A stretch of DNA of 64,000 nucleotides from a virus, in IMG/VR virus record IMGVR_UViG_3300050821_002957, positions 207,192-271,191 of that record. One strand, written 5' to 3'. Positions within the stretch are counted from its first letter, which is position 1; each line of letters opens with the position of its first letter. The position numbers and the translations under genes were made by a program. Below, piece by piece: positions 2,529 to 61,954 of this stretch. The notes under the pieces were generated by a model. It searched no databases. It was not told the origin of the DNA and saw only the letters and a program-made list of their open reading frames with translations.

Positions 2529-2539
2529 AGTGAGAGTAT

Positions 2540-2830
2540 TTAGATTTCAGCGTAGGCTTTCGCAAACATTATTTCATTGGGTTTGTATCGAAATCTGGTT
2601 GCAGAGCGAGCCATTGCTTCCGACTTGTAGACCTTCGCCCCAGCAGTATAGGCTCCAGAGGTCGCCTTGTTATTTTTAAGGACAATGGCGACATAGCCCA
2701 GTTCAAGTCGTTTTGTTTTTTCTACTGGTGTCGGCGGGGCCGGTGGAATTGCCTCTAATTCTTGTGCCGAAATTTTCAAAATTGCATTGAGACCGAGTGG
2801 GTCCTCTGGATCGATTTTTTTCTTTTTCAT
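2540..2830 (-). CDS. hypothetical protein
   Basis: 96-aa ORF starting MKKKK, in operon. Confidence 0.4.
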   Translation of the reverse strand: MKKKKIDPEDPLGLNAILKISAQELEAIPPAPPTPVEKTKRLELGYVAIVLKNNKATSGAYTAGAKVYKSEAMARSATRFRYKPNEIMFAKAYAEI

Positions 2831-4268: not shown

Positions 4269-4743
4269 TTATTTGGGTGGTATACTTTCCTCTCTACGGG
4301 AAAAAATAGCACAAAATCTTTTGGATGAAATGAGTCAGTTATTGTTCAAGATTCATCATCCTGATTCTGGCAGGGTCATTGAATCTGTTGTCCAAATGTT
4401 GTCGGATAACAAGTTGACCATCCTGGCGGCGTTGTGTACAAATAGTCAGGACAGCGAAAGCATCCAAGTTATCGCCACGACCATAATAATGCGACTGGCG
4501 TCAAAACAAAACATTGAGATCACCAGTACCGAGATGTTTGTCGATGCTACGAACAATTTTTTGCTGTTAGTAAATTTCGAGAACCTTCGGCGCAGAGGAT
4601 ATTTGGAATACCTCTGGCAGCGAGACATGTTCTCTACAGCAGAAGATCCAATGGCATTTAACAAGATCACTCCAGAAGGCGCAGTGTACACTCAACAAGA
4701 ATTTCTGAAGCGGTACGAAGGGACGGGTAAAACGGTTCAGTAA
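4198..4743 (+). CDS. hypothetical protein (start uncertain, overlaps previous)
   Basis: 181-aa ORF, frame differs from 3597-4268. Confidence 0.3.
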   Translation: MSAALKWKWKRKIMNSTSSEKPPDYLGGILSSLREKIAQNLLDEMSQLLFKIHHPDSGRVIESVVQMLSDNKLTILAALCTNSQDSESIQVIATTIIMRLASKQNIEITSTEMFVDATNNFLLLVNFENLRRRGYLEYLWQRDMFSTAEDPMAFNKITPEGAVYTQQEFLKRYEGTGKTVQ

Positions 4744-5169
4744 ATGGCAGCAATCACGCATTATCATGGGTGTCCTAGATTTTGGCACGCCCCACCAAAC
4801 AACTTGGCGTGTATCTGCTCGGACATTAGTCGTAAACTGGACGGAGTGATCTATGACACTTTCATCGATCCAATTTATAACAAATACCATAGCTTCCATC
4901 CAGACGTGGCCTATGAGCGAGAACCGGAACCGAATGCAGTGGACCAGTTGCCTGTTATAATGAAAGCCATGATCGACCCAGAAGAAGTGATTCGTGTCTG
5001 TGCTCAGGAAGCCAAAGAGGATTTTCATCAGTCTGCGGTTGAACAACTTTTGCAAAAATTTAATGGATCAGAACCAGATTTTGGTAACCGGGCTGCGGAA
5101 CTAGCTGAAGAGTTGCGACGAGTACAAAAAGAAAAAGATACTCTTACATTTTGGTCCTGCGCCGGTTAA
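4744..5169 (+). CDS. hypothetical protein
   Basis: 141-aa ORF immediately after previous stop. Confidence 0.4.
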   Translation: MAAITHYHGCPRFWHAPPNNLACICSDISRKLDGVIYDTFIDPIYNKYHSFHPDVAYEREPEPNAVDQLPVIMKAMIDPEEVIRVCAQEAKEDFHQSAVEQLLQKFNGSEPDFGNRAAELAEELRRVQKEKDTLTFWSCAG

Positions 5170-5319
5170 GGTTCCTATTGATAAGATTCCTATTGATCAT
5201 GTGCCTGTCAAAATACCACAACGAAAAGCACGTCCGATCCGAGATGAATCTGTTTATGAAAATGCAAGACGACTTGGTATCGAAGATATCGTCGATGATC
5301 TATTGGACAATTTATTCAA

Positions 5320-5619
5320 ATGATTGGAACATGTGACCTCTGTAAACGAAGAGAAGTCGATGTCACCCGACACCATCTGATTCCTCGAACGACACACAAA
5401 AACAAAAAGACCAAAAAAGAAACCAAATTTGAAGATCGCATCAAAACGGTTCCTCTCTGCCGACCGTGCCATAATCAGATCCACCACATCTTTACAGAAA
5501 AGGAACTGGAACGACAATGGAACACGGTCGAGCATTTGTTGACCCATCCAGAAGTCATCAAATTTGTAACATGGATTTCCAAACGTGCGGTCGGAGCACG
5601 TCTAAAAGTTAGAGCTTAA
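5320..5619 (+). CDS. HNH endonuclease
   Basis: CDLC...RHHLIPR...N...LCRPCHNQIHH: canonical HNH motif with two Cys pairs. Confidence 0.75.
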   Translation: MIGTCDLCKRREVDVTRHHLIPRTTHKNKKTKKETKFEDRIKTVPLCRPCHNQIHHIFTEKELERQWNTVEHLLTHPEVIKFVTWISKRAVGARLKVRA

Positions 5620-5637
5620 AAATTGAATGAGAGTAAA

Positions 5638-5817
5638 TTACCGTCTCAAGAGATTTTCTGTATGTTTCAAAAACATCTCGTGCGACTGCATCAGAGCATA
5701 CAAGGCAAGCTGATCACGTTCGTCGGGAGTTGCTTCGAGCTTCATGAAGAGGCTCGGAATGATTACGAGTGTTTGGTAGGCTCCCAACACTGTGCAGGAC
5801 GTTCCGTCAAGTTTCAT
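5638..5817 (-). CDS. small protein, paralog A of tandem pair
   Basis: 59-aa ORF MKLDGTSCTVLGAYQTLVIIPSLFMKLEATPDERDQLALYALMQSHEMFLKHTENLLRR; not in ORF track (<60 aa). Confidence 0.35.
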   Translation of the reverse strand: MKLDGTSCTVLGAYQTLVIIPSLFMKLEATPDERDQLALYALMQSHEMFLKHTENLLRR

Positions 5818-6180
5818 TTGAGAATCACCCTTTTGTGATTAGTAGTTCTTTGGGTTAAAAGTTCTCGGCCATCCCTTTTTGCTGTTCATCCATACACAGC
5901 AAAGTGAAAGTAACTGTTTTTCACAGTTTTGTGGGTAACTCAAAGAATTTAAAGGATTGTGAGCAATTTTGATCATCTCTGAGACCTTGTGATGTTCTCA
6001 GTGTGGCGCAAAAACATCTGATGGCATTGCATTAGCGCATACAAAGCAAGCTGATTTCGTTCGTCTTCGGTCGCTTCTAGCGTCATAAACAAAGAAGGAA
6101 TGATCACCAAAGTATGGTAAGCATTCCGAATCGTACACAGTTTTCCATCGAGCTTCATTTGGGGAGCCTTTCAAGCCTTC
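5640..6180. repeat. tandem duplication (two ~190-bp copies, about 5640-5830 and 5990-6180)
   Basis: gcatacaaggcaagctgatcacgttcgtc vs gcatacaaagcaagctgatttcgttcgtc and flanking similarity. Confidence 0.6.
5973..6158 (-). CDS. small protein, paralog B of tandem pair
   Basis: 61-aa ORF about 75% identical to paralog A. Confidence 0.4.
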   Translation of the reverse strand: MKLDGKLCTIRNAYHTLVIIPSLFMTLEATEDERNQLALYALMQCHQMFLRHTENITRSQR

Positions 6181-6980: not shown

Positions 6981-8063
6981 TTACTGCGCTGATGCCGTTT
7001 CTTCGGGAGCAGCTACCGAAACCACCTGATGACCATTCATTGCAGCTTCGCCGATAGCCGTCGCAGTGGATGCCAGATCCTTCTTGGATACGGTTTGCTT
7101 GACGGTTGCGCCGATGAAGGGCTTCCATTTGGTTTTGATCACGTCGGCACGCAACGCATCGAATGCGAGTAACATGGCACGACGAATGAAGATCGGACGA
7201 GTTTTGTCACGCTGGCCGGTTGCGAACGTCTCGACCAATTCCGACCGCAGAGCATCAACAGGATTGCCCTTGGGCAGCGAATTCTCCAACGGATTGAAGA
7301 AGGCTTCCATGAACAACATGCCCTTTTCACGGTCGATGTCGAACATCTTCAGGGCGGCGGCGGCGTAAATCGGAATGCGCTTCGTGCCCAGTTCGTCGTT
7401 CACGCTGCCGTGCGAGCGAAACAGAGTTGCGATGGTTTCGTAGACCGAATCGAAATACTCACGCTTGGTCTTGTACTCGTCGTTGATTTCGAGACGAGAC
7501 ATTGCCTTGTTGATGCTGCCCGGTTTGATGTTCTCTGGGAGCATGTAGTATTCGACCATCTCCCACTTGTGAGTGTCCACGTTTGCAAAATGGGCGAGGT
7601 TGGTCTTGGTGCGCTTTGCAACGCCCATGACGAGAAGATTGTCGATCAGAGCTTCGATGTTATCCACATGAATGCCGGTCAGCACTGTGGTTTCATAGCT
7701 CACTTCTGGATTGATCTCTGCTGCTTTCAGCACTGCGTTGCACCGATGTTGCAAATCGATGCCGTCTGCGGTGTCCGTAAACAACAGAGGTTCTCCAGTG
7801 TTGCGAAAATGTCCATTAAGCATCTGCCGTGCCATCGATTCGACCACCGACCAGTTGATCGGGCGATTCGTGACCTTGGGGTCCTTAAGGTTGAACTTCA
7901 GCAAAAATTCGGCAAGCTGCTTGTTTAGGCACACCGTGAACACTTTCACTTTGCTGTCTTTGCTGGATGCTTCGAGCGTCTTATTGAGAAGTGCCAGGGC
8001 TTTGCCTGACCCTTTCAACGTTTGGATCTGTTGATCGTCAATCGTTTGAAGATTGGTAGTCAT
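6981..8063 (-). CDS. ParB/Srx-fold protein with DGQHR-like motif (DGIDLQHR)
   Basis: 360 aa from ATG 8061-8063 (track ORF extends to GTG at 8192); motif ...EPLLFTDTADGIDLQHR resembles DGQHR/DndB-like ParB domain. Confidence 0.4.
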   Translation of the reverse strand: MTTNLQTIDDQQIQTLKGSGKALALLNKTLEASSKDSKVKVFTVCLNKQLAEFLLKFNLKDPKVTNRPINWSVVESMARQMLNGHFRNTGEPLLFTDTADGIDLQHRCNAVLKAAEINPEVSYETTVLTGIHVDNIEALIDNLLVMGVAKRTKTNLAHFANVDTHKWEMVEYYMLPENIKPGSINKAMSRLEINDEYKTKREYFDSVYETIATLFRSHGSVNDELGTKRIPIYAAAALKMFDIDREKGMLFMEAFFNPLENSLPKGNPVDALRSELVETFATGQRDKTRPIFIRRAMLLAFDALRADVIKTKWKPFIGATVKQTVSKKDLASTATAIGEAAMNGHQVVSVAAPEETASAQ

Positions 8064-8713
8064 AGAAGTCTTTCTTAGTTCTGAATTGAAAACGATTGGC
8101 TCAACACGCCGAGAATTTTTGACGTTTGTCCTTTCGTCTGCCTTCTCTTGTAGCAACGTTGATGCCAAACCTGTCTCACACACGAAAACCACGCTTTTTC
8201 AACATACGAAATTCTGTCTTCGCTGTTGTTTCACTTTTTGGATGCAAAATTTTCTGCAAAAGATGCACGAAACTTTGGTTGTGATGAAAAAACTGCAATT
8301 TTTGTATACCACCAGTGACGACATATGGACACTAGGTGACGGCCATTAGACATCATTGGCGCAGGTAACATATGTTAAATGGCGACACATGACCCATAAA
8401 GTAAAAGGGAGCAAAGTCTATGCGACTCGGCTCCCTGGACTACAAGCATTTGCGAACTATTCAATCAAGTATATAATGAGACCAGTGCTATTGCCTGTTG
8501 GTAATCATCCGCACACCCGGCAACTACCAAGTCCCCGTTGAAGTCGATGCGACGGACGTGAACATTTCTAGTTCTTTCGACCCGGCCCCGAAATGGTCAA
8601 CCGTGAGTTTCAGGTCTAGCACTCAACGTTCGCTCGTCACTAATGGCTGAGTACACTATTAATGTACCACCTGGAGTGATCCTTGTCAAACTTGGTACAT
8701 ACATATTTACGAG

Positions 8714-8743
8714 TTGACAAAGTTACATCTAATATGCTAGGCT
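8714..8743 (+). promoter_or_regulatory. promoter -35 TTGACA / 18 nt / extended -10 TGcTAGGCT; ATG 8 nt downstream (near-leaderless)
   Basis: read directly. Confidence 0.4.
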
Positions 8744-8751
8744 AAATCCGC

Positions 8752-9030
8752 ATGATAAAAGTCACGAAAATCATTGAAACGTGCGGAGCCTGTCCTTCGC
8801 AGTGGAGTGGAAGAACTGACGACGACAAATACCTCTACATTCGTTATCGTTGGGGATTTTTACGGATCGAATTAGAGGGTGATACAATATTTGAAGGTAC
8901 GTTCGGCGACAGCCTTGATGGTGTCATGACCTTTGAAGAGCTTGTCGAGCATACCGCACAAGAAATCGATTTTTCTGAAGCAAAATGGGTCGCCAGCAGA
9001 GAGGAAGTCCATGAATTACACTACTTTTGA
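8752..9030 (+). CDS. hypothetical protein
   Basis: 92-aa ORF first in long plus-strand block. Confidence 0.45.
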   Translation: MIKVTKIIETCGACPSQWSGRTDDDKYLYIRYRWGFLRIELEGDTIFEGTFGDSLDGVMTFEELVEHTAQEIDFSEAKWVASREEVHELHYF

Positions 9031-9220
9031 AAAATTTTTGGAAGAAAAACGTCAAAAAGCTCCAAAAATGAAGAAAATAAACAAGTTTTACTGGTTTTTG
9101 GCAATCGGGACAGCGTTTTTTTGCATTCTCGTCCAGCTTTATGGCATCTATGCAGAAGCGCAGATGCAAGAAAACTACTGTCAAGGAAAAGCCTTCATCG
9201 AACGCCTCTATAGCGAATAA
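9011..9220 (+). CDS. small membrane protein
   Basis: 69 aa from ATG 9011 with GAGGAAG SD; one TM helix (FYWFLAIGTAFFCILVQLYGIY). Confidence 0.4.
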   Translation: MNYTTFEKFLEEKRQKAPKMKKINKFYWFLAIGTAFFCILVQLYGIYAEAQMQENYCQGKAFIERLYSE

Positions 9221-9225
9221 TTTTT

Positions 9226-9264
9226 GATACATCTATTGACTTCGGTCGGCATTTTTGCTAAGAT
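9226..9264 (+). promoter_or_regulatory. promoter: GATACATCT-A-TTGACT / 17 nt / extended -10 TGcTAAGAT
   Basis: read directly; nearly identical to promoter at 27647. Confidence 0.5.
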
Positions 9265-9272
9265 GGACTCAT

Positions 9273-9917
9273 ATGAAACGTGAGATTGCCTACGAAGGAA
9301 TGAAAACGCCGTGGGGTAAAGCGCAAAGTGCTCAGGAAGTCATCACTGGCATGTACTTCGTCACCACCGCTGGTCATGGCGGCATGAAGCTCAGTATCAA
9401 GTTGAACAAACTGATCCCGGACTACATGCGGAACCAGGGTGGATGGTACGAAGAGGACATCGACTGGTGCATTCCTTACGTAATTCTGGCAACTCACGAT
9501 CTCTTGACCAATCCCAAGTTTGGTGAAGACGTAGACAAGGCTGTTGCCCTACTTCGGAATTGGAAGCCGATGATGTACGAGCGCTTTTTCGATGTCGTCC
9601 TCAAACCCGGCGAGTCCATGAAGAAGGACGAAATGACATGGCAGTCGTACAACGCCGACAAGTTGCAAGTGCTCGCCGCCTGGGGTTCCGGCCAAAATGT
9701 TCGTCTTTCCCCGCCAGCATACGGTGACGGTCCTCTTGTCGAATACGTAGTCAAGCCGGGTTTCGTTCTCGTAGTCGCTGCTGTCGGCGGTCGCACCAAT
9801 CACATCACAGAACACGAAGAGGCATATTATCTTGTGCCCGACGCCGAATATCAGGCTCATGGTCCTCATGGCTTCATCGTCGATCCAACCCATCATCAAA
9901 AGGTGAGTCATGTTTGA
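9273..9917 (+). CDS. hypothetical protein (leaderless ATG 9273 or SD-preceded ATG 9300)
   Basis: ORF to 9917. Confidence 0.5.
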   Translation: MKREIAYEGMKTPWGKAQSAQEVITGMYFVTTAGHGGMKLSIKLNKLIPDYMRNQGGWYEEDIDWCIPYVILATHDLLTNPKFGEDVDKAVALLRNWKPMMYERFFDVVLKPGESMKKDEMTWQSYNADKLQVLAAWGSGQNVRLSPPAYGDGPLVEYVVKPGFVLVVAAVGGRTNHITEHEEAYYLVPDAEYQAHGPHGFIVDPTHHQKVSHV

Positions 9918-10088
9918 AAATTTGAAACACATCTTAGAAGTTTCGGAGCTTGACATCAAGACCGAATTGAATCGTGTCGAAGCACACCTAGAAACGATTC
10001 GAGGAAAAGCTGATGGTCCGATTCTCCGAGTGTACGAAAATTATCGAGATAAATTGAAGCAACTTTTGAAACAAGAAGGGAAGTAGTC

Positions 10089-24964: not shown

Positions 24965-25186
24965 TCAATAAGGCTTCTCAAATACGACGGAACATCTGGG
25001 GCAACGCATGTCTTTGTAATTCAGTTCGACATTGCAGGACGGACAGAAATAGGCTCCAGAAATACTCTGCATGTCCGGGATGAAGCGACAGACAGGACAA
25101 TAGCCGCCTTGCAATCGTTCTTTACAGCCGTCGTCGTGGAAAGTTACAAAATTAGCTTTCATTTTTTCATCTTCCTTTTTTGTCAT
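24965..25186 (-). CDS. Zn-ribbon protein (4 CxxC pairs)
   Basis: 73-aa ORF. Confidence 0.4.
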   Translation of the reverse strand: MTKKEDEKMKANFVTFHDDGCKERLQGGYCPVCRFIPDMQSISGAYFCPSCNVELNYKDMRCPRCSVVFEKPY

Positions 25187-25413
25187 GGCGACTGTCGTAG
25201 TGACTCAGACCCGGCTTTCGCTTGCTTCCCAGATGTTGGACGTGCTCGGGTTTGGATCGCTTCAGAATGTCCGGGAACATCTTCAGAATCGCTGCGGCCT
25301 TCTGTTGCTGTTCTTCTGTCAGAACAAACTTCTCACGGCGAGTTGTCTGGGCGGCTTGTTCGTACAAATCGTCCATGTATGCCTTGGCTTTGGCTTCTTC
25401 GGCAATGAATTCT

Positions 25414-25854
25414 TTAAACGTCAGCACTGATTTTTTTGTTCCGTAAAAACAGAGGGTTTCCTAAGGCTTTGGAATTGTGATAGGTGCGAAGATAATCTTG
25501 TATTTCGCTCAGATGCTTTTTTGGAGCCTCCCAATCAAGCCGCTTCATCGTATAGTAAGAGAAGGAGAACCTTTCGCCTATCAAAGATTCTCGAAAGACC
25601 ATTACCTTTTCCCAATTGTCAGGTCCATAATAGCCATCGAAGTAGTTTGTAAGATACTCGATCTCTTCTTCGGTCAAAGGCAATTCTTGTTCTTGTTCAT
25701 GCTTGAGAAGAATAGGCAAAGAAAAAGAAGAAGAGGAGTCCCCGTCAGAAGAAAGTTTCTTATTGATGTGTTGTTCGAGTTGGACGAGAATTTGTGGTGT
25801 GATCATTGGTAGTCTTGTTCTGTGATGGTATGGCGGATCGTCCCAGTGGCACAT
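25414..25854 (-). CDS. hypothetical protein
   Basis: 146-aa ORF. Confidence 0.4.
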   Translation of the reverse strand: MCHWDDPPYHHRTRLPMITPQILVQLEQHINKKLSSDGDSSSSFSLPILLKHEQEQELPLTEEEIEYLTNYFDGYYGPDNWEKVMVFRESLIGERFSFSYYTMKRLDWEAPKKHLSEIQDYLRTYHNSKALGNPLFLRNKKISADV

Positions 25855-34168: not shown

Positions 34169-35056
34169 TCAATAGCGGTTATGATGATCGTATCTGTTTC
34201 TGGTGGCTTTTTGATACGCCTTAGCTACATCCGTACTAAATCCATGATCACGAGCAACAATGTGTTGAGAACCGTCTGGATGCTCAAAGACGCCTAAGTT
34301 TTTCTTCTGGTGATAGTCGTTCGGTGAGTGCCCAGTATTGCCGTGATAGTCCTGAAATTTCTGAACAAGTGGATGCTGATTCAGACGATGATGTTCTGCT
34401 TCTTGCTCAGACGTTCCTGAGTAATGTCTACCGTTGTTCTGGTCGTGGTTGTGGACCAAGGTATTGACAAACTGTTTGTGATTGATACCTTTTGGAAACT
34501 CTTTGTTCTTGGTCAGCTTTTGAAACTCTCCAGGCTTGATGTCTCGCACATGGCCGACGTGAGACCATTCATGTTTTTCGTGGTCATGATCAATCAATGG
34601 AGGAAAGATGCCGCTTTCTTTGTTTGAACTGTAATGATTTGATCCTTTCTCCGGTTCGTAGCGAAGAATACGATAGTTTCCGTTCACCCAATGATCGCCA
34701 CCTTCTGCGTGGTTTTGCATGGCACCCAGGCTCATTCCGTCGTGTTCTGAGGCTTTGTGATGCTTGTCGAGTGCGGCTCTGATGGCAACTTTTGTTCCAG
34801 AATGGATGTGTGCATCTTTGCCGTCAAGAACAATGTGATGCGGTGTGTCATGTTTCAAATAGGCTCTGGACGAACCTTTGGGCATGTTACCTTCGATGCC
34901 AGTCTTCTGTCCGCTGTTGGTCAATTGTTTGATCTTTTTTGCGAGCAGGCTTTGCTTTGGCGCATACGAATTTGAAGACGTAACAATCGACCGGAGTTCA
35001 GGATGAAGCTCTTCGACGATTACATTGTGGATGAAGTCTTTAAAATTGACCAGCAT
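34169..35056 (-). CDS. histidine-rich protein with CTS-like N-terminus (MLVNFKDFIHNVIVEE); candidate packaged internal protein
   Basis: 295 aa, about 14% His; CTAAATAC box 5 nt upstream of ATG. Confidence 0.5.
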   Translation of the reverse strand: MLVNFKDFIHNVIVEELHPELRSIVTSSNSYAPKQSLLAKKIKQLTNSGQKTGIEGNMPKGSSRAYLKHDTPHHIVLDGKDAHIHSGTKVAIRAALDKHHKASEHDGMSLGAMQNHAEGGDHWVNGNYRILRYEPEKGSNHYSSNKESGIFPPLIDHDHEKHEWSHVGHVRDIKPGEFQKLTKNKEFPKGINHKQFVNTLVHNHDQNNGRHYSGTSEQEAEHHRLNQHPLVQKFQDYHGNTGHSPNDYHQKKNLGVFEHPDGSQHIVARDHGFSTDVAKAYQKATRNRYDHHNRY

Positions 35057-35065
35057 GTCCAGTAT

Positions 35066-35320
35066 TTAGTCGAACAAACTGGCCTGATGAATCTTGGACA
35101 AATGCTTTTCTAAATTGGTGGGAGTCTTGCCGCCTTTCTTCTTCGCTGAGTGTGTCCATCCTGCGTCAGAGACGGTCGCTGTGTGGTCGAGACGAGGATG
35201 GGTATACTTGGTGACCCCGGACTCATTCGACGCCTTCTGATAGCCGTAATTGCGGAGCACAGCCTGGACTTTCTTGCTCGATTTGGACTCGGCGATCAGA
35301 AATTCGCTGAAGGATTGCAT
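35066..35320 (-). CDS. small basic protein with T4-IP-like N-terminus MQSFSEFLIAE
   Basis: 84 aa; compare T4 internal-protein CTS MKTYQEFIAE; CTAAATAC box 4 nt upstream. Confidence 0.5.
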   Translation of the reverse strand: MQSFSEFLIAESKSSKKVQAVLRNYGYQKASNESGVTKYTHPRLDHTATVSDAGWTHSAKKKGGKTPTNLEKHLSKIHQASLFD

Positions 35321-35348
35321 GACTGTATTTAGCTGTATAGATATCCAT

Positions 35349-35567
35349 ATGAAGATTACACATCAAACAGAATTCGACCTCTTCGTGGCGCTCCTGCCTA
35401 GGGTGGTTGCTCAGAATCCGATTACAGAGCCAGCCGAAGTCATGGCAAAGACACAAGAGCTTATGGAGAAAGCCATTGAACATCTGGAAGAGAAAGGCAT
35501 CGTTAAAGACAGCACGCCTAACAAAAAGTTGAGCATTCGTCCACCAAACCGTTACGCTGAACTGTAA
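35349..35567 (+). CDS. hypothetical protein (leaderless from TGtATAGAT -10)
   Basis: 72 aa from ATG 35349. Confidence 0.35.
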   Translation: MKITHQTEFDLFVALLPRVVAQNPITEPAEVMAKTQELMEKAIEHLEEKGIVKDSTPNKKLSIRPPNRYAEL

Positions 35568-35571
35568 TATT

Positions 35572-35787
35572 TCAGCCTTTAATAAAACTCAAGAGTTGGC
35601 GTGGACTGATTTTTTCACATTCGGCTTCGATCTCAACGATGCGGCGTTTGGGAATATCATAATGAGGGAATCGGCCACCGTGAAACCAGCAACGTTTGAT
35701 GTTGAGCCGGTCTGCCATCGTATGCAAATTTGGAATGCTGTACGGGACGCAGATCAGGTGTCGAGCGCCATCGGTATAGTAAATCAT
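35572..35787 (-). CDS. hypothetical protein
   Basis: 71-aa ORF. Confidence 0.4.
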   Translation of the reverse strand: MIYYTDGARHLICVPYSIPNLHTMADRLNIKRCWFHGGRFPHYDIPKRRIVEIEAECEKISPRQLLSFIKG

Positions 35788-35797
35788 TGAAATATTT

Positions 35798-36340
35798 ATG
35801 AGCTATTCGTACAAATTCAAAACCAACATCTATTATGACAAAATTGCAAAGGACTTGGCCGGAAGCGAGATTGGCGATGTCACGCAATTTCTGAACGAAC
35901 TTGCAGAGGCATTGAAAGCTCGCCATACGCCGGAAGAAGATCAGGTGATTGTGATGCTGCCTGAAGATGCATTCTTTGGAACACTGGCGTTAGGTATTCA
36001 GGATGCAATCACAAATGCCCAAGAGAAGGTCAAAGAGAACACTCGTATTGCCTTTGCCCAGCCGACACATGAACAAATTGAAGAGAAGATCAAAGAACTG
36101 CTTAACGGTGGTACTGATACATCGGTCGATATTCCATTTGATCCTGATTTGGTGGCGCTTCCTCTTGAAATGCGACGGGCTGAACAGATGAGTGGCATTA
36201 AGAGCAATCCAATTGAATGCCGATCTGATCTTTCAAGAGAAGAGCACATCAAACGAACCACCGATACGCTTCTTAGGAATACAGAAATAATGCTAGGCGA
36301 CAAACAATACAGAAAGCAAATGGGTGATCCTACCGTTTAG
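35798..36340 (+). CDS. hypothetical protein
   Basis: 180-aa ORF. Confidence 0.45.
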   Translation: MSYSYKFKTNIYYDKIAKDLAGSEIGDVTQFLNELAEALKARHTPEEDQVIVMLPEDAFFGTLALGIQDAITNAQEKVKENTRIAFAQPTHEQIEEKIKELLNGGTDTSVDIPFDPDLVALPLEMRRAEQMSGIKSNPIECRSDLSREEHIKRTTDTLLRNTEIMLGDKQYRKQMGDPTV

Positions 36341-36744
36341 CGGTTTTTAAGGGTGTTTCTAGGATCAAACGAACCAACATTCTGAGCTTCAGCTTTCTCT
36401 CGCACACGGAGGCGTTTTGAACTTTGAATACCTAATAGTTCTTCGAGCTTCAGTTTTCCGCCTCCTCCCTTTTTGATCCATTCGCTATTGTCACTTTCAA
36501 ATTCTAACGAGTCGATCTCAGTGTCGGTGTCAAAATAGGTTTCGTCAGCCTCACTGTCCAACAAAGCGAAGATGGGCCGCTTGGTGTTCTTGTCATAGAA
36601 TTCATCTTTGGCTGGATCGTATTCGAGTTCTACTTCAGTGGTCCAACGTTTTGGCTTTGCTGCGATGTTCGAGGCCGGGAGTGGCAATGGTTTCTTTGAT
36701 ACTGCTTCTTCTAATTCTTTCTTCTTTGTCAATTCGATATTCAT
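36337..36744 (-). CDS. hypothetical acidic protein
   Basis: 135-aa ORF. Confidence 0.4.
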   Translation of the reverse strand: MNIELTKKKELEEAVSKKPLPLPASNIAAKPKRWTTEVELEYDPAKDEFYDKNTKRPIFALLDSEADETYFDTDTEIDSLEFESDNSEWIKKGGGGKLKLEELLGIQSSKRLRVREKAEAQNVGSFDPRNTLKNR

Positions 36745-37074
36745 AACGTATTTGTCTGACTATGTATCACGTTGAAGTCACAGATTGGGCACAAATAATG
36801 TGGGAGTCGTTTCACCGATCCCAATCGGAAATTGTACGCCACTAGGATGTGGGCGCAACGGAGACATTTCAATTTTATTTTGTCCATATTTGGCACGTCG
36901 AGCAATGACGAAATCCCATCTCAGCTATCCATCGATGTCCTCGCACAAAGCATTTCGATTCACGGACAAAAAATTCTTTGTAGTGTCGATAGGCTTGAGG
37001 CATATGAAGTGTCCACCAAATCAGCCGCACCAAATCGTTCTTCGGTCGCCATGTGTACCACCAAAGACCAATAT

Positions 37075-37542
37075 TCATTGCTGTAATTTTTTGTATGCAT
37101 CTCGTGCAGGCATGATACCTTCCCGACCGAGTTCTTTCATGGCTCGTGCGTTCTTATAAGATTTACCACCGTTCTTTGGGCGCTTGTAGACACCTGCGCT
37201 ACCTGAGACAGTCACTTCATCATTGTGGTCTGGTTTCATGAAATGTAGAGCTTTGAGTGCTGTCGCTTTGCCCTTTGGATGAGTAGCATCATAATGGACA
37301 AAGTGATGAAAACCGTGAATGCTGCTTACGTTCGCTCCGAATCTTGTGAAACCCTTTGCTTGAGCATCTTGAACAGAATCACCCTGTTTGCCGCCAGCTT
37401 TTATATAATCGGGATGATGATTGGCATAGTGTTCTCCATGATGACTGAACAAATGTGCTTCACCAGACGGACTCATCCATCCTCTCATGGCTTTTTCTGG
37501 TTGCCACGATTCGTTGATGAATTGGATAAAGGTCAGTAGCAT
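37075..37542 (-). CDS. histidine-rich protein, CTS-like N-terminus MLLTFIQFINE
   Basis: 155 aa; paralog of 37542-38120. Confidence 0.5.
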   Translation of the reverse strand: MLLTFIQFINESWQPEKAMRGWMSPSGEAHLFSHHGEHYANHHPDYIKAGGKQGDSVQDAQAKGFTRFGANVSSIHGFHHFVHYDATHPKGKATALKALHFMKPDHNDEVTVSGSAGVYKRPKNGGKSYKNARAMKELGREGIMPARDAYKKLQQ

Positions 37543-38120
37543 TACTCTTCCGGTTTATAGTCTTCCTTCGGATGCGTTGCGTGGAAGACCGGCGCTTTCT
37601 TTGTTCCCATGCCTTTCACACGCTCGACATGATGAAAACGCTTTGCCAATTCGTGATGAACATGATCGGCATCGATGTCATGAGCTTTGCGTGGAGACTC
37701 GGGGAAGTTGCCGGTGAATGCGCCACCTTTGTGAGTCGCCTTGTGAATTTGATCCAGCGTGTGACCCATCATCTTTTTGTTCGACTGGACGTTCAGAACA
37801 TTAGATGCGTACACATGATGATACTTCTTGTCTAGTGCATGAGGATCGTGAACGCCGGGTTTCTGGTTGCTTCCAAATTCGTGTGCTGTGACGTTGTGAC
37901 CTTTTTCACGAAGGCGCTTTGCGTGCGCTGCTTCGTGGCCTGCACCGAAATCGAGAAGATGGCGACCTGCCTTGTCGTTGTGTTTAGCTTCGACAGCTTC
38001 GACGTGACGAGGCACCAGGGCCTTTGCGCCGACTGCACCAGCCGCACGAGAAGTGCTGTTGGCGATTTTCTTTTCTTCGTCGCTAAATTCGAGCAGCCAG
38101 TTGGTAAAGGACTTCATCAT
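37542..38120 (-). CDS. histidine-rich protein, CTS-like N-terminus MMKSFTNWLLEF
   Basis: 192 aa; CTAAATAC box 4 nt upstream. Confidence 0.5.
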   Translation of the reverse strand: MMKSFTNWLLEFSDEEKKIANSTSRAAGAVGAKALVPRHVEAVEAKHNDKAGRHLLDFGAGHEAAHAKRLREKGHNVTAHEFGSNQKPGVHDPHALDKKYHHVYASNVLNVQSNKKMMGHTLDQIHKATHKGGAFTGNFPESPRKAHDIDADHVHHELAKRFHHVERVKGMGTKKAPVFHATHPKEDYKPEE

Positions 38121-38128
38121 GCCAGTAT

Positions 38129-38427
38129 TTAGCTGGCTTTGACTCCTACTTCCTTCAACTTACGAGGACGGCCTGCTTTGCGTCCCTTTACACGGTCGTA
38201 CACACTGCGCTTGTGACTGTATCTGCGGCTACGAAAGATTTTATAGGCACGCTGAGTCAAAGTTTCGTCTTCTTTCATTTTAACACTCTCGATTGGAGTA
38301 GCGAAAATATTGACCGGGCCGCAGCCTGTAAATTCGTATCCACAGTGTTCGCAGCCGAGACACGGTTCATTCACACAAACACCCGGCGAAAGTTTCTTTG
38401 GTTTATCGTTTGAAAGTTGAAATGCCA
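38129..38427 (-). CDS. Zn-finger protein with C-terminal AT-hook (GRKAGRPRK)
   Basis: 99 aa from ATG 38425-38427. Confidence 0.4.
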
Positions 38428-39191: not shown

Positions 39192-39521
39192 TCACTCATT
39201 GGTTGTGGCGGCTCCTACCATTACATAGCGATTCAGCTTTTCTGCGGTTGCCATTACCTTCTCAAGGCTGACTCGACCGGGCGAGCAAACCAATTCAGTC
39301 CCACGTCCACCTTCTCGGCGAGGTAACCAATAGTTGCCGCCATCCTTTGTGTCTCTGAATTTTTCCATCAATGTGGCGATGTATTCTTCTGCTTTGACCT
39401 TGGGAAGATTGCCCACGTCGATGTAGAAGATTCTTGATTGTGTGCTGCTTTCCTCAATTTGAAATGCCATCTTGAGCGTTTCGAGGCGCAGGAGTTGTTC
39501 GTGTTGCATGTAGTCACTCAT
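39192..39521 (-). CDS. hypothetical protein
   Basis: 109-aa ORF. Confidence 0.35.
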   Translation of the reverse strand: MSDYMQHEQLLRLETLKMAFQIEESSTQSRIFYIDVGNLPKVKAEEYIATLMEKFRDTKDGGNYWLPRREGGRGTELVCSPGRVSLEKVMATAEKLNRYVMVGAATTNE

Positions 39522-44313: not shown

Positions 44314-44389
44314 TGGTAGACCCGGTAGGATTCGCACCTACGACCTCATCGATGTCAACGATGCGCTCTAACTACTGAGCTACGGGTCT
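44314..44389 (-). tRNA. tRNA-Val (anticodon GAC), CCA encoded
   Basis: manual cloverleaf: acceptor AGACCCG/CGGGTCT, D stem GCTC/GAGC, anticodon stem CATCG/CGATG loop TTGACAT, T stem GTAGG/CCTAC; D-loop lacks GG, T-loop TGCGAAT. Confidence 0.8.
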
Positions 44390-51794: not shown

Positions 51795-52358
51795 TTATTT
51801 AGTGGCCTCTTCCAAATTTAAATGGGCCTTCACTTCGTACTTGTCGTAAAAATATGGAGTGTGGTAGATCGGTTTTCGTTCGTTGAATGCGGCTAGAATT
51901 TTTTTGCGTTCGATCTTGAAGATAGCATCTGGAACGAACGCATATTCTTTGCGAATCAGTTCGGTGTTCGCAGCAAAATGATCGACGGCCAGTGAAGTGA
52001 GATCAATGTCGCAAATCAATTTTTCGTCGTTGGTTTCTGGTTTGAATCTATCAATATGCTTGGTCACCAGGATATAACGTTTGACACGTTGTGCGAATGC
52101 TTCGTCGTATCCTTCTCGCAAGGCAGCTTCATAAGCAGAATCCGCCGACCGTTCTTCGTTATCAGTGAATTCGCCTTCGTAGATGTAGTCATGAAACCAC
52201 CATGCAAATCGAAATGCTTCTTCGTCGTCAACATGCACCCCGGCCTGAAGTGCCTCACGGAGTTCTTTGAAACCGTCAGCAATGTGATCTAGATTGTGAA
52301 AAAAGCGATTCGGACGCCTGTATCCGTAATACAGTTGAACAAGGGTTTGTTGATTCAT
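51795..52358 (-). CDS. HD-domain metal-dependent phosphohydrolase (COG4339-like)
   Basis: FHNLDH ... WWFHDYIY. Confidence 0.45.
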   Translation of the reverse strand: MNQQTLVQLYYGYRRPNRFFHNLDHIADGFKELREALQAGVHVDDEEAFRFAWWFHDYIYEGEFTDNEERSADSAYEAALREGYDEAFAQRVKRYILVTKHIDRFKPETNDEKLICDIDLTSLAVDHFAANTELIRKEYAFVPDAIFKIERKKILAAFNERKPIYHTPYFYDKYEVKAHLNLEEATK

Positions 52359-52581: not shown

Positions 52582-54135
52582 CTACTTCAGAACGTGGAAA
52601 GGATTGTGGTGTGGTTGTTCGCCGCCCGGTTTCGGATGATTAATGCGAATGATACCGTCAGGATCTACCTTGTTTGCGAATTTACCAGCAGCATCGTTGG
52701 TTACGCCTTTGAGACGAAGACCCGAAACGACTCCGCTGTGTTCATCATGGCCGTGACCGTTGGTGTGCTTGATGCCCAATTGTTGATGACGGTCGAATGT
52801 ATTATCGTCTTCGTCACCGTTTGCAATTGGATAACGATGGCCGCTCGATACATCTTCTACGTGTGTCGGATGAGGAGTATCCTTACCACGGTGGTGAACC
52901 ATTGCGACGACGTGACCATTCTTCAATGCATGAACAACGTCTTTATCGTTGCTTTCGGAGTGGCCTGTACCAGTATGAGACAAACTCAAATGGTAATTTT
53001 CTGGTTTGTTCGGATTGTGAAGACGGCCCGGAATTTTGGTATAATCATAAAATTGCGAACCATGATGACGCTCGAAAAATTTCTTCGGCATCAAGTGTTC
53101 GTAAGGGATGTCAGACGTAACATTTAGACGCACACCGGATTGGTGAGGATTTGGCGTAACTTTGTCGATCTTTCCGCCATGCTCTTTAATGTGGGCTTGT
53201 GCTTCTTGTTTGGTGTTAAACTGGTGTTCGCCAACATGATGAGTCTTTACGTTCGCAGCTTCTTTTTCGTTGCGTGAAATTTCGTGGGACAACAAACGTG
53301 CGGCATGTTCAGGATGCTCATGGACGTAATGTGTACGCAGAACCTTTGCTCGTAATGCTGCTTCAGGATATTGACGATTTCCACCAGCAGTCAGGCCGAG
53401 ACAATTCTTGCGGCATTCACCAGACGCCTTCGGGCATAGATCGTGCTTGTATCCAGAGTGTGTGCTTGGAGCCATTGCGAGACCAACTGTCTTTACGCCA
53501 GCACCGCTGCTCTTACGAGTCTTGCCATTTTCACCCATCAAATTTGCTTGACCGTTCTTTGCGTGACCACCACGTTCGTGCATGAATTGACGGAAATGCT
53601 TTTGTGCTTCTTTGGCCTTTTGTTCGGTGACCTTTGGGTGTTCGCCTTCTGGAAATGCAGCATGGAAGCCTGCCTTCATATGCTGGAATGGATTGCCGCC
53701 TTGCTTGTCCAGCGCTTCACGACCCTTTGCCTGAATGTCTTTGACCGGAAATGCATCTTCCGTCATAGAACTTTTCTGCGATTTTCCTGGTTTGCCGGAA
53801 CGAGTCATGTTCATCCAGGGCGAAGACAGGTGATGCAAGAAGTTATGAACGATAGGATAGTCGAGGAGAGTCTTCTTGGTGCCTTTCTTTTCGATGAGTA
53901 TTTGCGGCTGTTCGTACAGAAATTCGATCTCTGCTTTGTCAAGTTCAAGAGTTTCATCAAGCAGGAGGGCAGCTTGGGTATCGAAAGATTCTACAACTTC
54001 TTTGGTTTCGATCTTTGCTTTGTACTCTTCTGCAAGCTCTTTGTCCATTTTGATGATGTCGGTCAAAAGGTTCTTACCAAAGAACTTGGCGTAATTTTTT
54101 TCGGTTAGGTCGGCCATTATTATCCCTCGACCCAT
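52582..54135 (-). CDS. large histidine-rich protein (alternative ATG 54117 with GAGGG SD)
   Basis: 517 aa; His-rich C-terminal half; GCTAAATAT box overlaps first ATG. Confidence 0.5.
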   Translation of the reverse strand: MGRGIIMADLTEKNYAKFFGKNLLTDIIKMDKELAEEYKAKIETKEVVESFDTQAALLLDETLELDKAEIEFLYEQPQILIEKKGTKKTLLDYPIVHNFLHHLSSPWMNMTRSGKPGKSQKSSMTEDAFPVKDIQAKGREALDKQGGNPFQHMKAGFHAAFPEGEHPKVTEQKAKEAQKHFRQFMHERGGHAKNGQANLMGENGKTRKSSGAGVKTVGLAMAPSTHSGYKHDLCPKASGECRKNCLGLTAGGNRQYPEAALRAKVLRTHYVHEHPEHAARLLSHEISRNEKEAANVKTHHVGEHQFNTKQEAQAHIKEHGGKIDKVTPNPHQSGVRLNVTSDIPYEHLMPKKFFERHHGSQFYDYTKIPGRLHNPNKPENYHLSLSHTGTGHSESNDKDVVHALKNGHVVAMVHHRGKDTPHPTHVEDVSSGHRYPIANGDEDDNTFDRHQQLGIKHTNGHGHDEHSGVVSGLRLKGVTNDAAGKFANKVDPDGIIRINHPKPGGEQPHHNPFHVLK

Positions 54136-60474: not shown

Positions 60475-61075
60475 ATATATCTACCTTTATGACCCCTAGT
60501 GGTACTCGAATGGTTCCGGCGCTTGTGGGCGAACCGGAAATAACCTTAACCCCAGCCCATCTTTCTCTTGACGATGTTTTGACCGTCGCCGGAAAGTATG
60601 AAACCGATCCTCTTTGCCTTAGCCTTGGACCACTGAAAGGTTCGACCAACAGACATGTCTTTGCTGCGCTTGTGGCGGCGCTGGACACGTCGGGAACCGT
60701 TCAGGCACTATGGACATCCGAACCGATGTTCAGTAGCGCAGAAGCCGCCCAGGAACATGCAGAAGATGTCATTGGAACAGAACTGTGGCCGTTGCTGTTT
60801 TGTGGTGCCGAATCGAGCCTTTGACAAATCCTGATTTTCGGCTACCATGACCACATGAATCAAGACACATTCGATCAATTTGTAATTGAAATGGTCAATC
60901 TGGACGAGCCGACGTACAAAGAAATTTTAAACATCATTGAACAAGGGCGTCATAACATCGAAAAGGCACAAATCATTAGTGTGCAGAATCAATACATGGT
61001 CCGACGATTGAAAGAACTAGCTCAAGAAGAAGTTGCTGTCGAAGAGCTTTCGAGAATGTTTGACCTACCAACGTC

Positions 61076-61723
61076 TTAAGCGACCGCCGTAATCACACAT
61101 TCAATACCCAACAATTTCAAAATTTTTTCTGGTGTCATCTTGGCTGCTCTGAAATATGCACCGACCCATTTAATTTGGGCATCCATCAGTTGCTTTTCTG
61201 AAAAATAGTCGCCCTTTGCAGCATTGATCCAGAATGGAACGACTCTGGTATTCTCTTCGGTATAGCTAAGGCGGGGTACACTTTGGTCGAGTGAAGGAGC
61301 ATATGGATTCGTCTTGTTATGAATGTCACCATCGAGGCCCATTTGAATATCATGTTTTGCGTAATATTCAATGGCTTTTTGTACCTTGTCGATCACCCAT
61401 TCTGGTGTCAATGTAACCTCAGGCAAATTCTTCTTTCGTGCTCTGGTCTTGGCATTATGAAGTAAATCTTTTGCCTTTCCCTCCAGAGTCAATCGAAGAA
61501 GGCGACGAGCTACTTTACCCTTCTCACTTTTTTCCTTCAATTCTTCAGGGGATAATTTTGCTATAGATTTGGCGTAATTGTCATTGGTACATTGGACACA
61601 TTGCCTGCTTCGTTCAAAGCGCAGTGTAGTGTTGCATTTCTTACAAGGTGGTGCTTCAAATGTCTTTGTCGAGCGACGTAAACCCTTCATGCGTACATTT
61701 AGCACGCTCGCATTTGTTGTCAA
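61076..61723 (-). CDS. Zn-ribbon + degenerate HNH (His-Me finger) nuclease-like protein
   Basis: CKKCN...CVQC; C-terminal YAPSLDQSVPRLSYTEENTRVVPFWINAAKGD resembles S.DRID...GY...N.....N..K HNH variant. Confidence 0.35.
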   Translation of the reverse strand: MTTNASVLNVRMKGLRRSTKTFEAPPCKKCNTTLRFERSRQCVQCTNDNYAKSIAKLSPEELKEKSEKGKVARRLLRLTLEGKAKDLLHNAKTRARKKNLPEVTLTPEWVIDKVQKAIEYYAKHDIQMGLDGDIHNKTNPYAPSLDQSVPRLSYTEENTRVVPFWINAAKGDYFSEKQLMDAQIKWVGAYFRAAKMTPEKILKLLGIECVITAVA

Positions 61724-61954
61724 CCGGATGGCCGATATGATAGAACGAACACCAAGGGCAATGGTACGGTTCTAATGTCTCTCCCGGCGACTTTACTTCC
61801 AAATTGTACGCCGCTTTCGTTGCCTTTAAAGGCGTGTCGTATTTGATCTTCTGGCCACAAGAACGTTCTTCACCAGATGCCAAAGCAACAGCGTGGTCTT
61901 GCTCAAATTTTTCGACGATTTCCTTAGGCCACATTTCAACTAAATATTTCCACT

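Follow-up and report, generated by a model that had tools for sequence, protein, structure and literature searches.

Why should unrelated proteins of one phage begin with nearly the same short peptide? The question is raised by a 64,000-nt stretch of viral DNA (IMG/VR record IMGVR_UViG_3300050821_002957, positions 207,192 to 271,191), hereafter the window, in which four minus-strand genes clustered between positions 34169 and 38120 encode proteins with similar N-termini. An earlier reading made from the letters alone, the sequence-only reading, had likened these N-termini to the capsid-targeting sequence (CTS) of the internal proteins (IPs) of phage T4, and had taken the four products for a family of histidine-rich proteins. 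We designate the genes A295, B84, C155, and D192, and add to them a fifth, E86. Our analysis indicates that they probably encode CTS-tagged, late-expressed proteins of a deeply branching T4-like myovirus, which would be trimmed by a protease, packaged in the head, and ejected.

A shared N-terminal tag

The open reading frame (ORF) listing confirmed all four clustered genes and the N-termini claimed for them (table 1). A regular expression for the tag, applied to each of the 2,264 potential starts of the window, recovers only these four genes, two weaker small genes, and E86. The latter is a fifth strong tagged gene, located outside the cluster and absent from the sequence-only reading; it is independently present in the public gene call of the contig (86 aa, L001 19630-19890). 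The five strong N-termini have the common pattern M-x(1-3)-[F]-x-x-[F/W]-[I/L]-x-E. Inside proteins the tag pattern is rare, with 2 occurrences in 15,007 positions; at this rate chance would give about 0.12 N-terminal matches in 148 ORFs, whereas at least four are seen (five strong ones; Poisson p = 7e-6).

The T4 genes ipII and ipIII begin MKTYQEFIAE, and ipI begins MKTFKEFTSTT (NC_000866). The first of these starts had also been ascribed to IPI, wrongly: it holds for IPII and IPIII only. According to a review from the Black laboratory, the first 10 residues of IPIII are enough for encapsidation, CTS residues 4 and 7 carry targeting and residues 8 and 10 processing, and gp21 cleaves after L/I-X-E (PMC9026906). 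The window proteins share with the T4 IPs a tag of ~10 aa in which residues 4 and 7 are aromatic and residues 8-10 read I/L-x-E. The tag of E86 (MLTFKEFIAE, to be compared with MKTYQEFIAE and MKTFKEF) is the nearest of all to the T4 IP tags. The predicted cleavage motifs are IAE in B84 and E86, INE in C155, LLE in D192, and IVE in A295.

The tag is best documented in the A295 family, where E15 is invariant and an I, L, or V two residues earlier is conserved in a 39-sequence alignment. The N-terminal consensus of 120 homologues is FK[DE]F[ILM]xN[VI]IVE, followed by the predicted cut and xLHPEL. The codons at conserved tag positions vary (F is TTT in 13 cases and TTC in 16, E is GAA in 20 and GAG in 10, and six codons are used for L), which argues for selection on the peptide and not on an RNA element. 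In the AlphaFold2 (AF2) models of A295 and C155, the tag stands apart from the globular core and is modeled with low confidence.

The notion of a family did not survive comparison of the four clustered proteins by BLAST, which detected no pairwise similarity past the first ~10-16 residues. Paralogy of A295, B84, C155, and D192 is therefore ruled out. A recent DNA duplication or cassette exchange of the tag is not supported either, as the tag-coding DNA is identical between genes at only 9-21 of 36 nt. The tag unites unrelated cargoes and not a homologous family.

Table 1. Tagged genes, late-promoter-like boxes, and other features of the window (pI, isoelectric point; SAM, S-adenosylmethionine)
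Feature	Positions	Strand	N-terminus and tag	Key tag positions	Predicted mature part or remark
A295	34169-35056	minus	N-terminus MLVNFKDFIHNVIVEE; tag MLVNFKDFIHNVIVE, predicted cut before E	F5, F8, I9; cleavage-type I-V-E at 13-15	~280 aa, globular, pI 9.1, 11% His, Cys-free, protein-kinase-like fold
B84	35066-35320	minus	tag MQSFSEFLIAE, predicted cut before S	F4, F7, then I-A-E	73 aa, pI 10.0, 15% Lys, Cys-free, IP-like
C155	37075-37542	minus	tag MLLTFIQFINE, predicted cut before S	F5, F8 (T4 spacing moved one residue)	144 aa, pI 9.7, 9% His, Cys-free, compact alpha/beta domain
D192	37542-38120	minus	N-terminus MMKSFTNWLLEF; tag M(M)KSFTNWLLE, predicted cut before F	from second Met (MKSFTNWLLE): F4, W7, L8, E10	~180-aa class-I SAM-methyltransferase core, 12% His, Cys-free, pI 9.4
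E86	25167-25427	minus	GTG start; tag MLTFKEFIAE, predicted cut before E	F4, F7, I8, E10	76 aa, pI 9.7, Lys/Arg-rich, Cys-free
CTAAATAC box	35062-35069	minus			5 nt 5' of A295 ATG
CTAAATAC box	35325-35332	minus			4 nt 5' of B84 ATG
CTAAATAC box	38125-38132	minus			4 nt 5' of first D192 ATG
Further box	2537-2543				
Further box	51796-51802				
Further box	61940-61946				
Further box (contig L046)	upstream of 4420-4944(-)				
Weak candidate	9011-9220	plus	start MNYTTFEKFLEE	aromatic/I-L/E spacing correct	called gene, 69 aa
Weak candidate	60855-61079	plus	start MNQDTFDQFVIE		called gene, 74 aa
GP88-domain (PF17338) protein	52582-54135	minus			possible weak extra member; CTAAATA box at 5' end
DUF4031 protein	35572-35787	minus			71 aa (E = 2e-6), untagged
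Portal_T4-like mini-ORF	39192-39521	minus	...RIFYIDVGNLPKVKAEEY...YWLPRREGGRGTEL		stand-alone, 109 aa; matches Portal_T4 profile positions 187-235 (E = 2e-13)
tRNA-Val (GAC)	44314-44389	minus			lone gene amid small hypothetical genes

Lineage, head genes, and promoter-like boxes

The window lies at roughly positions 12,708-76,707 of a 178,905-bp Logan contig (logan:SRR7093796_86073), of which we read about 84 kb (~3.9-86.5 kb of 178.9 kb). The 10 kb to the left of the window encode T4_baseplate, Phage_TTP_2, Phage_T4_gp2, and T4_Y16D proteins, and the other flank carries thioredoxin, dUTPase, and ClpX-like genes. The gp2 homologue matches 1,731 T4-type phages with an identity of at most about 41%, the best matches being Phage C48C1, Rhizobium phage RHph_I1_18, Sinorhizobium phiM12, Pelagibacter phage Mosig, and Stenotrophomonas phage Mendera. 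Relatives carrying D192 homologues also encode gp32, gp59, gp44, and gp45. Together, the T4 tail genes, the gp2 matches, and these four genes of the relatives place this uncultured phage on a deep branch of the T4 superfamily. Neither the region (megablast) nor A295 or D192 (tblastn) has a match among 50,697 INPHARED phage records.

The sequence-only reading had called for a search for a gp21-like prohead protease. This search was successful in two relatives, the contigs L016 and L158, both of which encode a Peptidase_S77 protein; none was found in the ~84 kb read of the contig under study. In L016, a portal gene (with an intein) is followed by Peptidase_S77 (5292-6017; E = 4e-36), T4_CASP (E = 5e-60), gp23, a gene for a His-rich 223-aa protein, and an A295 homologue. 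In the relative L019, an A295 homologue comes next after gp23. L158, a T4-like contig of 141 kb, carries tail-tube genes, Portal_T4, Peptidase_S77, T4_CASP, Gp23, a 457-aa gene, a GP88 protein, and a D192-family methyltransferase. The GP88 protein (8753-9988), encoded in the head module, has a perfect tag, MLSFRQFLAE, and the methyltransferase begins MRHTVTLLNE; in both, the predicted cut is before A. From the gene orders of these three contigs, the A295, D192, and GP88 families are thus placed at the 3' edge of the head cluster in relatives. The major capsid protein (MCP) of L016 has L-M-E, the cut, and TTSGG aligned to L-T-E, the cut, and AEIGG of T4 gp23, L63 and E65 being invariant.

An alignment of gp21 used as a query in IMG/VR matched at more than 600 loci. 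The gp21 homologues of the clade (L057-L073) begin MKLITE... or MKLICE..., with an I-x-E near the N-terminus like the 'LIE-9' of T4 gp21; this motif would be compatible with autoprocessing. The His-rich 223-aa protein of L016 (9229-9900, minus strand) has a Phage_L5_gp82 domain (E = 2e-8) and a tag-like start, MTVKTLSFMNFFMKKITHNTINAE.

Boxes with the sequence CTAAATAC are only 4-5 nt away from the ATG at three of the tagged genes, and 4-8 nt from start codons over all the sites of this kind (table 1); the same sequence is found ahead of the gp2/tail-tube/baseplate operon of this phage. The start of C155 overlaps the stop of D192 (TAATG), forming a translationally coupled pair that the box upstream of D192 would drive if it acts like a T4 promoter. 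Seven of the 12 CTAAATA sites of the window are located 6-15 nt 5' of a start codon. Among A295 homologues, [AC]TAAATA is present within 50 nt upstream in 21 of 33, against 1.3% expected (p = 6e-32). The sequence TATAAATA, the T4 late-promoter consensus, lies ahead of gp22 and gp23 in L016. By analogy with T4, the occurrence of promoter-like boxes at the tagged genes, gp22, and gp23 makes expression late, together with head proteins, likely.

The spacing of the boxes differs between the window and its relatives, which have NATAAATA 20-35 nt upstream and an AGGA-type Shine-Dalgarno sequence; the box-bearing starts of the window have no Shine-Dalgarno sequence. With the geometry of T4 promoters, transcription would start at the ATG or 1 nt before it, giving leaderless or near-leaderless late mRNAs. 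At one of these box sites the start codon is GTG, unexpected for a leaderless mRNA. Untagged small genes, one of them encoding the DUF4031 protein, are interleaved between the tagged pairs. The tagged genes therefore do not form a single unbroken operon.

Tagged proteins in the window and in relatives

A295 belongs to a family conserved in uncultured T4-like phages, with 297 metagenomic homologues of ~290 aa on contigs of up to >200 kb. Its AF2 model (predicted local distance difference test, pLDDT, 86) is confident apart from residues 1-13 and has a bilobal kinase fold, best aligned with RIO, Bud32, the Ark1 RNA kinase, and APH. Foldseek against viral models returned phage and giant-virus kinases, among them a kinase-domain protein of Ralstonia phage RP12 (prob 1.00). 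GSSRAY, K89 (GTKVAI), E118 (QNxAE), D247...N253, and D270-H-G-F are invariant in 39 sequences. Mapped by inspection, these residues follow the canonical order of kinases and lie on the corresponding secondary-structure elements of the model. There were zero matches to A295 in Pfam, NCBIfam, PHROG, and PDB sequence profiles. As modeled, A295 would be a protein-kinase-like enzyme.

D192 matches Pfam Methyltransf_23 (PF13489; E = 9.5e-5, 22.6 bits). Its family counts 207 homologues, and most of the 120 listed have precomputed PF13489 matches. The SAM-binding motif I, LDFGAG, is invariant across the family. We accordingly regard D192 as a predicted small class-I SAM-dependent methyltransferase. 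C155 has 11 homologues, in which H30, H38, H43, and H83 are invariant, and an AF2 model with a pLDDT of 85; a fold search returned no convincing structural relative. B84 and E86 are very basic proteins of 8-9 kDa. No enzyme signature was detected in B84, E86, or C155, and PHROGs, NCBIfam, and PDB sequence profiles gave nothing useful for any tagged protein. The longer clustered proteins had been described as partly of low complexity, and a structure and profile check of their His-rich cores had been advised. The low-complexity description does not hold: A295 and C155 are globular in their AF2 models, and A295 and D192 are members of large conserved families. The check itself gave globular models and a kinase-like A295 on the structural side, and the PDB sequence-profile search was empty.

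The tag is a module: 62 members of the D192 family carry it, and 56 are without the aromatic motif, many of these beginning directly at the core. The nearest relatives of D192 begin MKTFKQFIKE, MKTYKQFITE, MLTFKQFIKE, or similar, and continue with the core (...IANKTSRxxGAVGAKAIVPRHV...LDFGAG); distant members start 8-14 residues ahead of IANxTSR and have no tag. Its presence on close relatives and its lack on distant ones thus mark the tag as a separable unit. Three members with inserted extra domains (P0150, P0159, and P0171) have kept it at the extreme N-terminus. Similarly, two C155 homologues (P0247 and P0250) have a Zn-ribbon inserted between the tag and the core, and the tag is still N-terminal. 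All 11 C155 homologues are tagged, as are the four informative ones among the five matches of B84. One tagged B84 homologue also carries, as a fusion, a His-rich linker with a GNAT-like domain.

We found no orthologue of B84, C155, D192, or E86 near A295 homologues in 44 IMG/VR loci. These four are therefore variable genes, for which no synteny argument can be made. The same 44 loci encode unrelated tagged proteins, often adjoining the A295 homologue: an S-AdoMet-lyase-family protein (PF23780, E = 7e-15) starting MQSYKQFVSLLE in L043, a DUF6267 protein with the tag MKTFLEYILTE in L021, and proteins of 431-906 aa in L003, L013, and L022. In L005, two A295 kinase-like paralogues are in tandem (7817-8698 and 8709-9578), both tagged. 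We found nothing in the literature on His-rich internal proteins or on DUF6267.

The histidine richness noted earlier is real for the four clustered proteins: A295 has 11.2% His, D192 11.5%, C155 8.4%, and B84 6.0%, where the window averages 3.1% (standard deviation 2.1). The His-rich tagged genes rank 1st, 2nd, and 4th of the 104 window ORFs of at least 80 aa. The predicted mature forms of all five proteins have a pI of 9.0-10.0, 9-15% Lys, and zero Cys, only 8% of window ORFs being Cys-free. The T4 IPs have a pI of 8.9-9.5, 13-15% Lys, zero Cys, and 1-2% His. In the D192 family, tagged cores average 6.7% His and 0.09% Cys against 3.2% and 0.51% for untagged ones (p = 1e-10), a difference confounded by phylogeny, and the relatives of D192 range from 1 to 12% His. 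The tagged proteins of L158 are His-poor (GP88 1.7%, methyltransferase 2.5%). His richness as a universal mark of tagged cargo is refuted by this GP88 protein. The low His of the L158 cargo and of the T4 IPs points to a sub-clade trait of late basic proteins, which also takes in the GP88 protein of the window.

Proposed packaging, its alternatives, and minor features

In the mechanism that we favor, an N-terminal CTS of ~10-16 residues would combine two aromatics three apart, for targeting, with a following I/L-x-E. The tagged genes would be transcribed late, and the tag would dock each protein on the gp22-type scaffolding core during prohead assembly. A gp21-type (Peptidase_S77) protease would cut after the Glu, releasing the mature protein inside the head. 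This basic protein would remain with the packaged DNA and be ejected with the genome into the next host. The heterogeneous cargo (A295, D192, C155, B84, and E86) would thus constitute pre-made effectors at the first moment of infection. The register of the tag, the lineage, the protease and scaffold of the relatives, gene position, modularity, late boxes, and composition all agree with a T4 IP-like capsid-targeting N-terminus with an L/I-x-E site, as the sequence-only reading had proposed.

Several points weigh against this mechanism. We infer that the tagged proteins are physically packaged, cleaved, and ejected, and likewise infer their enzymatic activity and their targets. The part of the contig that we read has no head module genes, protease, or scaffold, the last two being known from relatives only, and the tagged genes sit among small hypothetical genes, outside a head module. 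A box 4-5 nt from the ATG is unusual, and its designation as a late promoter is by analogy with T4. The tag of A295, with its E at position 15, is longer than the 10 residues of T4, and A295 is highly conserved whereas T4 IPs are hypervariable. Finally, the score of D192 itself is under the 27-bit gathering score of its Pfam family.

Brought into the prohead by the tag, the proteins might have a role confined to the capsid interior, as counter-ions of the DNA or as condensing or core components like IPII and IPIII, their enzyme folds being inactive scaffolds. In their basic, Lys-rich nature all resemble the T4 IPs, the lysines of which make contact with the phosphates of DNA (PMC3012670). Moreover, high His and Lys and zero Cys resemble a compositional adaptation and not a catalytic need, and three of the five proteins (B84, E86, and C155) are without enzyme signature. 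However, the invariance of K89, E118, D247, N253, and D270 across 39 A295 homologues and of the LDFGAG motif in the D192 family argues for retained catalysis, and in relatives the tag is carried by members of genuine enzyme families, S-AdoMet lyase among them. We therefore consider a purely structural role unlikely.

Less probable still are two explanations that give the N-terminus or the histidines another meaning. According to one, the shared N-terminus is an amphipathic helix with a different role (membrane or partner binding, a degron, or initiation on near-leaderless mRNAs), and its likeness to the T4 CTS is convergent. A box so close to the ATG leaves room for initiation signals in the 5' coding region, and the location of the tagged genes outside the head module of this genome would fit. 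Yet relatives with ordinary Shine-Dalgarno leaders keep the peptide through different codons, and its conserved positions are the functional ones of the T4 CTS (PMC9026906). In addition, the T4 scaffold and protease are encoded in the lineage, three cargo families are near gp23 in relatives, and the tag always ends in I/L-x-E, which neither a helix nor a degron needs. This convergence seems to us quite improbable. We give as little credence to the idea that binding of Zn, Ni, or Cu is the principal shared function, whether the proteins are packaged or not. It would account for a His content of 6-12% against a background of 3% and for the invariant His of A295 (H18, H100, H169, and H193) and C155, but most His positions are unconserved and the enrichment is diffuse. 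Tagged homologues elsewhere can be His-poor, as in L158 and among the D192 relatives, profile searches detected no metal-binding domain, and Cys, the usual partner ligand, is wholly absent.

The proposed packaging by the CTS can be compared with several known systems. As in the T4 IPs, the mature proteins are unrelated apart from the tag, basic, Lys-rich, and Cys-free, and they come from a lineage with Peptidase_S77, a gp22-type scaffold, an L-x-E site in the MCP (in relatives), and clustered tagged genes. The mature parts are, however, dissimilar in sequence to every T4 IP; since the latter are mutually unrelated as well, homology of the mature region is no defining requirement. Further differences are a His content of 5-12% against 1-2%, a tag of 15 residues in A295, and packaging and cleavage that are here predicted. 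The cargo also includes large conserved enzyme-like proteins (a kinase-like one of 280 aa and a SAM-methyltransferase of 180 aa), whereas that of T4 consists of small hypervariable inhibitors and DNA-binding proteins. An example of the small inhibitors is IPI*, which blocks GmrSD.

A precedent for enzymatic cargo is T4 Alt, an ADP-ribosyltransferase that is loaded in the prohead core, trimmed by gp21, and ejected, and that modifies host proteins at the onset of infection (PMC9026906). Alt differs in having a 7-residue N-terminal propeptide (MELITE...) and a C-terminal one, in its fold and chemistry, and in its lack of homology to A295 and D192. The giant phages phiKZ, 201phi2-1, and SPN3US also eject many head-internal proteins, the propeptides of which are cut after Glu by a diverged gp21 homologue. 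They belong to a different lineage and their cleavage motif is S/A/G-x-E; we know of no short universal aromatic CTS in them. With RIO, Bud32, Ark1, and APH kinases, A295 shares the G-loop, the VAIK-Lys, the alphaC-Glu, the catalytic Asp/Asn, and the DFG-like Asp, in order, but has no sequence-level match to any kinase family. The phage kinase gp0.7 of T7, unlike the proposed cargo, is expressed early and not packaged.

The T4 CTS is the textbook route for loading arbitrary proteins into the head and is used in T4 nanoparticle engineering. To our knowledge, natural CTS cargo is known almost only from T-even coliphages. The IP mechanism of T4 is thus established, and what would be new are the cargo types (notably the conserved kinase-like protein), the reach of the tag across the T4 superfamily, and the compositional bias. 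Our results suggest that this tag is also at work in an uncultured T4-like clade that is deeply divergent and widespread in the environment. They also suggest that it is attached to enzymes: the kinase-like protein, the methyltransferase, and, in relatives, the SAM lyase. A broader scheme, offered tentatively and with more doubt than conviction, is that this large clade loads pre-made enzymes through the CTS, a 'loading dock' of general use. The dock would take up a conserved injected atypical kinase (A295, about 300 clusters) and lineage-variable cargo (SAM methyltransferase, S-AdoMet lyase, GP88, DUF6267, and GNAT fusions), His-rich and Cys-free in the present sub-clade. Such a composition could be an adaptation to the DNA-filled capsid. 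We may speculate that His acts as a charge switch, a protonated counter-ion in the capsid that becomes neutral in the cytoplasm, where the DNA is released. If packaging is true, the repertoire of proteins injected with phage DNA is wider than known. A simple rule (the tag with I/L-x-E, in a genome with Peptidase_S77) would then mine ejected effectors and anti-defence proteins from metagenomes, and A295 would provide a testable case of an injected phage kinase.

The remaining candidates of the window are less typical. The product of 9011-9220 is basic with 2 Cys and not His-rich, and that of 60855-61079 is acidic (pI 4.5) and not His-rich either. The GP88 protein of the window contains 8.7% His and 10% Lys, and its N-terminus (MADLTEKNYAKFFGKNLL...ELAE, then E) is non-canonical as a tag. 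GP88 proteins are otherwise from mycobacteriophages and ~300-kb phages. The label 'minor head protein' on the GP88 homologue of phage Tunturi_5 was set aside, its gene context giving no backing.

The stand-alone ORF at 39192-39521 matches part of the portal. The portal of L016 (1138-4185), 1,015 aa in size, has a mid-gene intein-like insertion with a homing-endonuclease-like domain, inserted directly before the segment corresponding to this mini-ORF. The mini-ORF could be an intein or homing-endonuclease remnant or by-product, or a portal-fragment decoy. A protein identical to C155 is known from a contig of 405,631 bp, and A295 from contigs of the 0.2-1 Mb class. Our contig of 178.9 kb may thus be incomplete, or those of greater length may be concatemeric or chimeric assemblies. 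One A295 homologue (P0060, on a 175-kb contig) is attributed at NCBI to 'Candidatus Dojkabacteria bacterium'. Most likely, the contig is that of a T4-like phage and was binned into a metagenome-assembled genome, although the attribution could be a hint at host range.

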